Below, one piece after another: positions 31,173 through 31,379 of a stretch of DNA of 64,000 nucleotides. A program made the translations under genes and the position numbers. Numbering within the stretch: position 1 is the first letter of the stretch; each line of letters opens with the position of its first letter. Location of the stretch: contig CAVSUE010000001.1 of NCBI GenBank assembly GCA_963731265.1, positions 608,001-672,000 of the forward strand, written 5' to 3'. This stretch comes from an uncultured Verrucomicrobiae bacterium (GTDB lineage Bacteria > Chlamydiota > Chlamydiia > Chlamydiales > Rhabdochlamydiaceae). Under the pieces are notes generated by a model. The model saw nothing but the letters and a program-made list of their open reading frames with translations, searched no databases and was not told the DNA's origin.

Positions 31173-31199
31173 ACTTCTGCAAAGTTTATGATTAATTGC

Positions 31200-31280
31200 A
31201 TGAAGAAAGCTATGTTTGCAGCACTTCCACGTTCGACCATTCAGGCGCCGCCTCCCCCCCGTTTCCCCCTTCAGGGGTAA
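31200..31280 (+). CDS. Putative proline-rich leader peptide of proBA (MKKAMFAALPRSTIQAPPPPRFPLQG)
   Basis: Four consecutive Pro codons; stop 100 nt upstream of proB; hairpin abutting stop; alternative in-frame ATGs at 31188 and 31212. Confidence 0.7.
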   Translation: MKKAMFAALPRSTIQAPPPPRFPLQG

Positions 31281-31379
31281 TCACTTTTCTTATTAGTTCG
31301 TCCTTTTTGTCATTCTAAATTTTTAGAATCTATTACGCGATTATTTCGCATTTTCTAAGTGTATTTATTGGGCTTAACG

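Follow-up and report, generated by a model that had tools for sequence, protein, structure and literature searches.

The window that we analysed is a stretch of DNA of 64,000 nt in which a gap of 207 nt separates the gene pair pncB (NAPRTase, 29077..30558) and pncA (isochorismatase fold, 30555..31172) from proB (31380..32123) and proA (32120..33352), which are both on the plus strand. According to Pfam, proB, whose start codon is ATG 31380, encodes 247 amino acids with an amino-acid kinase fold and no PUA extension, and proA encodes a product of 410 amino acids. An earlier note on this DNA had described a proline-rich small ORF in the gap, which we confirmed: the ORF runs from ATG 31200 to TAA 31280 on the same strand as proB (as do all the leader features given below), consists of 26 codons plus TAA, and has the predicted product MKKAMFAALPRSTIQAPPPPRFPLQG (26 aa, 6 of them proline). 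Read as codons, 31248..31259 is a run of four consecutive proline codons, our proposed sensor, and a fifth, neighbouring proline codon (31266..31268) sits within the 5' arm of a small hairpin (hairpin 1, see below). An untranslated spacer of 99 nt separates this leader ORF from proB; the pyrimidine-rich tract that had been noted before proB was likewise present, with pyrimidines at 28 of the 35 positions of 31281..31315.

Among the 2047 intergenic ATG-initiated small ORFs (12-45 aa) of the window's genome, PPP was present in 7 and PPPP in one, which was the leader ORF. The search for small ORFs with runs of other amino acids across this genome yielded none that was convincing, and proC, whose start lies 36 nt past another gene, was without a leader. 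A 31-aa small ORF with a WW pair was seen in three identical copies outside the window (C1:199..294, 1423600..1423695 and 2003522..2003617 of the window's genome), which probably mark a repeated element. Some 8-9 kb downstream of proBA, the window has two genes for tRNA-Pro (anticodon CGG; 39533..39609 and 40496..40573, plus strand) that are about 1 kb apart; the remaining tRNA-Pro genes of the genome (UGG, GGG) are located elsewhere, and the proline run of the leader opens with the codon CCG.

Distribution and coding character of the leader ORF

We examined the DNA upstream of proB in an order-wide sample in which 68 of 400 scored genomes possessed this gene. Thirteen loci were left out before counting, namely ten weak kinase matches (L013 and L015-L023), partial genes without a 5' end (L010 and L086), and the Dehalococcoidia locus L087. 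We scored a leader where, within 350 nt upstream, a small ORF of 14-40 aa had two or more Pro among its final 12 residues and a hairpin of a C-run and a G-run was located at its stop codon. This rule was positive in 28 of 75 related proB upstream regions, which span six families (the window's own, with at least 9 genera, and five others), and because the related genomes are kin, such locus counts overstate independence. In a control set of upstream windows of other long ORFs in the window's genome, the rule was positive in 73 of 2231, a figure that fell to 6 of 2231 once four or more Pro were demanded; by a count from the listing, 22 of the 28 leaders had at least 4 Pro in their last 12 residues. 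The 47 of 75 proB loci from which the leader was absent by this rule included L029 and L033 of the window's family and several of family f31, and were mostly more distant proB genes directly behind another gene. One of them (L033, in genome G376) has the start of a divergent gene in place of the leader ORF; it retained sequence like the downstream half of the leader, with hairpin 3 and the right-hand arm of hairpin 2.

The leader ORF measured 17-26 codons in 27 of the 28 loci (and 39 in L040, as the rule sets its start), began with ATG in 26 and GTG in 2, and ended with TAA in 26. Two to five consecutive proline codons were found in 27 loci, with runs of at least four in 17, and the distance from the ORF to proB was 56-209 nt. 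The upstream neighbour varied between leader loci (a pncA-like gene in 3 of 28) and proA followed proB in 25 of the 26 with enough downstream DNA, so the leader ORF travels with proBA. Leaders accompanied both short ProB (open frames of about 260 aa without a PUA domain, as in the window) and long ProB of 374-451 aa (for example L009, L031, L037, L040, L044 and L045). In the proB ribosome-binding region, about 8 nt ahead of the start codon, most loci carried A5-7 and then TTGG or TAGG, whether or not they had a leader (31366..31379 in the window), and in many relatives the proB start lay three codons further upstream than in the window.

The 28 sequences, each taken from 48 nt upstream of the stop codon to 38 nt downstream of it, served to build a covariance model (R1). 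Matches to its training sequences follow by construction, and the informative results are its single copy per genome, its absence elsewhere, and its new matches. R1 matched 22 of 129 genomes of the window's family, exactly once in each; proB was directly downstream in 21 of the 21 assessable cases, and the 22nd match lay at a contig end. No match was found in genomes of the same genus without proB, and in the order-wide sample the 5 genomes matched (of 151) were all training members, each with the match before proB. Four matches fell outside the training set, three of which had an intact ORF with 3-5 consecutive Pro. In the fourth (L099, at a contig end of G018, which is 56% complete), the N-terminal part and the part with the proline run and stop codon were in different frames, the shift amounting to one base within a C-rich stretch, which could be a homopolymer assembly error, decay or something else. 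The leader family thus has about 31 members, 28 found by the rule and 3 by the covariance model. A related-locus search of genome contigs returned only a partial ProB of 98% identity and an unrelated Dehalococcoidia proB without a leader.

Conservation of the proline run with synonymous variation, which the earlier note had named as a check, was what we observed upstream of proB in the relatives. In aligned proline columns, codon positions 1 and 2 were C in nearly all sequences, and position 3 mixed A, C, G and T (in one example column, G5 T8 C6 A3). A fixed CC with a free third base argues that proline decoding is under selection. Proline made up 19% of the 518 residues of the leader peptides, and 99 of 124 leader proline codons ended in a pyrimidine versus 108 of 180 in proB of the same loci, a difference that the test overstates owing to kinship.

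These results bear on whether the ORF is a regulator at all, as it might instead have arisen incidentally within a promoter region or non-coding RNA that is itself conserved, or might encode a small protein with its own function. Much of the leader is conserved as nucleotides, including a 5' hairpin, the T-runs and hairpins 2 and 3 (see below), and L033 keeps the downstream part without the ORF, as would be expected of a non-coding element. However, CCN periodicity, the free third base, and the conserved start, stop and length are marks of a translated frame, and no function in trans is obvious for a peptide that has 17-26 residues (in 27 of 28 loci) with polyproline at its end and is always encoded beside proB. 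We therefore regard a non-regulatory ORF as very improbable.

Residues other than those of the proline run also recurred across families, namely an N-terminal Phe-Phe-Thr and, later, ...PPPPPF.G followed by the stop codon. In the 5' half of the ORF synonymous sites were conserved too, and this half can fold into a start-codon hairpin, so part of the peptide conservation is at the RNA level; the frame over the C-run and G-run differed by locus (P-L-x-G versus P-F-x-G), while the RNA motif stayed. Because of these two observations no peptide-level selection is required beyond the proline run, and the residues that follow the run need not be selected as peptide. Judged from the alignments, nascent-peptide arrest, or RNA-level conservation together with the hairpin, would explain the recurrent residues equally well.

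Arrest of this kind belongs to a further alternative, in which the polyproline ORF reports EF-P activity or general translation capacity, or is a sequence-specific arrest peptide, and the stall alters mRNA stability or the translation of proB but not transcription. A stretch of 4-5 Pro is a classic EF-P-dependent stall motif, and two EF-P paralogues are encoded in the genome; the recurrence of Phe-Phe-Thr and PPPPPF.G, and the 5'-proximal position of the ORF, from which a stalled ribosome could shield the mRNA end, fit as well. On the other hand, the strict tie to proBA alone points to proline and not to general translation, the hairpin can account for the residues after the proline run, as the frame differs and the RNA motif stays, and the N-terminal codons, being kept at synonymous sites, suggest RNA-level constraint. 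In addition, no structure joining the leader ORF to the proB ribosome-binding site was found in the folds. We consider control of this sort, or such a signal, improbable.

Expression signals and RNA structures of the leader

A promoter-like site, identified by consensus match only, occupies 31164..31192, with a -35 element TTGAAC (31164..31169), a 17-nt spacer and a -10 element TATGAT (31187..31192). As this -10 element ends 7 nt ahead of ATG 31200, the leader ORF would be read from a leaderless or near-leaderless transcript. An in-frame ATG further upstream (31188) would give a peptide of 30 aa; this codon falls inside the -10-like hexamer and so is probably absent from the transcript. The same leaderless-type layout (-35, 16-18 nt, TAnnnT, 6-7 nt, ATG) was found in 5 of the 28 leader loci, the window among them (L001, L002, L003, L005 and L014), and 14 other loci had an SD-like G-rich motif 5-14 nt before the start codon, leaving 9 with neither feature by rule. 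In the subclade with SD-like motifs (L004, L007, L026, L030, L083 and others) we observed a conserved 5-bp hairpin and a promoter-like site further upstream. Codons 7-10 of the ORF can pair there with the SD/AUG region, enclosing a hairpin of an A-run and a U-run at the start codon.

Hairpin 1 (31266..31277) pairs CCCC (31266..31269) with GGGG (31274..31277) around the loop TTCA. It is built from a proline codon and the last glycine codon and is abutted by TAA (31278..31280). A hairpin abutting this stop codon had been claimed before, and its position stood; the 5 bp and 2-nt loop ascribed to it are sterically impossible, and the actual stem has 4 bp. In the family, too, the 5' arm consists of the final proline codon or codons of the ORF; the G-run is followed by the stop codon at a distance of 0-3 nt in 26 of the 28 loci, and in the other 2 the stop codon is inside the hairpin loop. 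Over the 28 sequences 89% of cells were paired, with invariant outer pairs and modest covariation of the inner pair (C-G 12, U-A 7, U-G 6). The window's 46-nt segment containing hairpin 1 had a folding energy of -6.4 kcal/mol (z -0.75), and the window's whole leader was no more stable than shuffled sequences (z -0.43).

Two further hairpins lie in the spacer. Hairpin 2 (31312..31329) is an A/U-rich inverted repeat of 7 bp; at its position, relatives had differing but complementary arms with varied loop lengths, which looked compensatory by eye. We considered this palindrome as a second promoter or a protein operator and rejected both, since the arm spacing varies and the arms co-vary (by eye). 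Hairpin 3 (31337..31356) has a 4-bp G/C stem, a 5-nt loop and a short T-rich tail; it was weakly terminator-like, passing the relaxed terminator rule alone, and was variable among relatives (in L002 a similar stem of 4 bp precedes T7). Under strict criteria, no terminator was recovered from 30900..31600. The Rfam scan of 30900..31700 returned just four matches at E up to 10, all of them weak and unrelated, so we rejected a T-box or any other known riboswitch.

Single and consensus folds yielded only local, independent hairpins. No mutually exclusive antiterminator pairing was conserved in the single folds, in consensus folds of 23, 12 and 4 sequences, or by eye, a search that a weak alternative pairing could escape. 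As no alternative hairpins were found, only hairpin 1 and the C-rich tract would lie under a ribosome on the ORF.

One alternative is attenuation of a purely intrinsic, pyrBI-like kind, in which hairpin 1 and its T-rich tail terminate transcription, a ribosome on the proline run blocks folding, and Rho is not needed. The sole terminator-like feature common to the family is a hairpin followed by a T-run. In 17 of the 28 loci, five or more consecutive T begin 3-8 nt past the G-run, and hairpin 1 together with the tail satisfied the strict terminator rule in 6 of the 28 and the relaxed one in 21 (L085 gave another strict match, at a different place in its leader). Moreover, the 5' arm is a proline codon and would be covered by a stalled ribosome. 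However, the stem is just 4-5 bp, and the stop codon and more intervene before the T-run, whereas the clear terminators of the window's genome, surveyed by script, have G/C-rich stems of 7-13 bp with the T-run 0-1 nt away, making hairpin 1 much the weaker structure. The T-run was also weak or missing in the window's own subclade: the window has TTTT at +7, and the 45 nt that we scanned in each of L003 and L005 contained no T5. Finally, when polymerase is at the T-run, a coupled ribosome would not yet be past the proline run in either state, and thus a terminator-only design would be expected to give no discrimination or the wrong sign. Taken together, these points make intrinsic attenuation by itself rather unlikely.

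After proA (33440..33472, plus strand) we observed a 5-bp G/C hairpin, an 8-nt A/T spacer and T8, the same layout as at the end of the leader ORF. This may be a habit of the lineage or a weak terminator.

The C-rich tract and a proposed mechanism of proBA control

In order to accommodate these features, we propose that the leader peptide senses tRNA-Pro and switches proBA on when a ribosome stalls at the proline run, a reading to which we assign a probability of about 0.7 on the strength of sequence comparison. The earlier note had suggested a leader peptide of this type, and our results support that suggestion in part, through the conserved small ORF and proline run with synonymous change.

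As to how transcription would be stopped, the leader contains a candidate Rho-loading tract of 78 nt (31248..31325; 25 C, 9 G and 22 YC), which includes both the proline run and the pyrimidine-rich segment. Compared with 360,414 windows of the genome, this tract was in the top 0.8% for C/G, the top 0.3% for YC, and the top 0.13% for both. The bias was also present in the family mean, with 28.6% C and 10.8% G in the 80 nt around the stop codon, versus 11.6% C and 14.9% G in the rest of the leader. The window's genome encodes rho alongside its two efp paralogues. According to PMC5021804, Rho sites are not reliably predictable from sequence, and polyproline stalls upstream of a rut site raise Rho termination in E. 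coli. By analogy that effect would be opposite in sign to our proposal, unless the stalled ribosome itself covers the site.

Termination in the spacer may be of the Rho type, with the proline codons doubling as the loading site, although we hold this part of the model only tentatively. We infer that Rho-type termination is more likely than intrinsic termination because it gives the right sign: the tract would be bare after release at TAA and hidden by a stalled ribosome. On the Rho reading, the hairpin and the T-run 3-8 nt on would be a pause signal and not a terminator; a hairpin with a spaced T-run may resemble the his pause signal.

The order of events would then be as follows. The first ribosome would translate the leader ORF close behind RNA polymerase, the window's transcript being probably leaderless. 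With charged tRNA-Pro plentiful and EF-P helping, this ribosome would clear the proline run and be released at TAA, baring the C-rich tract and leaving hairpin 1 free to form, so that transcription would stop in the 99-nt untranslated spacer and proBA expression would be low. With charged tRNA-Pro scarce, the ribosome would be held on the proline run. Its footprint, which extends about 12-15 nt beyond the P site (PMC3641672), would hide most of the C-rich tract as well as the arm of the hairpin; the 5' arm of hairpin 1 is covered when the second-to-last proline codon of the run occupies the A site. Termination would consequently fail and proBA would be transcribed.

A fuller version of this proposal, which we offer as speculation and think unlikely to be right in every part, would have the CCN repeats act as both tRNA-Pro sensor and core of the Rho-loading site, with the hairpin/T-run pause synchronising ribosome and polymerase. 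It would amount to a tna-like, Rho-dependent design with the sign of a biosynthetic operon, no alternative folds, and a leaderless start in part of the clade.

Relation to known leader systems

To our knowledge, next to nothing has been described of how RNA leaders regulate genes in the chlamydia-like lineage to which the host belongs. The window's genome (2.34 Mb) had five TLC nucleotide-transporter matches, four of them full-length and one of these with an internal stop, and these transporters together with the two EF-P genes fit an environmental chlamydia. The chlamydial outer-membrane family PF03504 had no match in this genome and none in the controls either, and is thus uninformative. Naville and Gautheret (2010) wrote that almost no predicted attenuator of Chlamydiae had an associated function (PMC2965389). 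In the literature outside subscription journals, including PMC2965389 and PMC4833913, we found no description of a proline leader peptide for proBA, nor of a leader peptide of this kind in Chlamydiae. If our proposal is true, proline would join the amino acids sensed by leader-peptide attenuation, through a minimal design in which the regulatory codons themselves form the sole ribosome-sensitive structure together with the C-rich tract. It would also offer a handle on how these host-associated bacteria gauge proline supply, and a compact natural test case for the interplay of ribosome stalling, EF-P and Rho.

Attenuation by leader peptides has been described for the Trp, His, Phe, Leu, Thr and Ile/Val operons (trpL, hisL, pheL, leuL, thrL and ilvL of enterobacteria). 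Like these, the proBA leader has a short ORF on the same strand before a biosynthetic operon, rich in codons for the amino acid of the pathway, in which the progress of the ribosome would report charged tRNA. It differs from them in its amino acid and operon (proline and proBA), in having no terminator/antiterminator pair that we could find and no Rfam match, in its sole ribosome-sensitive hairpin, which is made of the regulatory codons and abuts the stop codon, and in its chlamydia-like host.

The same operon is controlled in Firmicutes by a proline T-box, an RNA that binds tRNA directly without a translated ORF. The operon and the signal (uncharged versus charged tRNA-Pro) would thus be shared with the proBA leader, which gave no T-box match at E up to 10. 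In the tnaC-tnaA system of E. coli, a ribosome retained where the short leader ORF ends keeps Rho from its neighbouring loading site, and transcription continues through a long untranslated spacer; free tryptophan is sensed via the nascent peptide at the stop codon, and a catabolic operon is induced. On the Rho reading, a ribosome on the proBA leader ORF would similarly mask an adjacent Rho-loading site and let transcription cross the untranslated spacer, but it would stall at sense codons lacking charged tRNA, and the operon is biosynthetic.

In the nearest tested cases, mgtP and mgtL, short ORFs contain proline codons at the base of a stem, and low charged tRNA-Pro raises downstream transcription. 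Salmonella mgtP has 17 codons, 3 of them consecutive Pro, and its downstream transcription rises when charged tRNA-Pro falls; the mgtA leader contains mgtL, a short ORF that has four Pro codons and, though unrelated, also responds to proline (PMC3641672). These ORFs control Mg2+ transport and virulence genes (mgtCBR, mgtA) through defined alternative stem-loops, whereas proBA serves proline synthesis and no alternative stem-loops were found in its leader; in an informal look we saw no sequence likeness between them and the proBA leader. The pyrL leader of pyrBI, according to PMC5021804, has a terminator hairpin within or at the end of its ORF, whose folding is prevented by a close ribosome without an antiterminator. 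The proBA leader has in common with it the hairpin at the end of the ORF and a design that would need no antiterminator; pyrL differs in sensing UTP via polymerase pausing and in its strong, canonical terminator (PMC5021804). Because the search for an antiterminator failed and the terminator is doubtful, the proBA leader appears, from the features compared here, to be a variant of the classical leader-peptide attenuators and not a plain member of that class.
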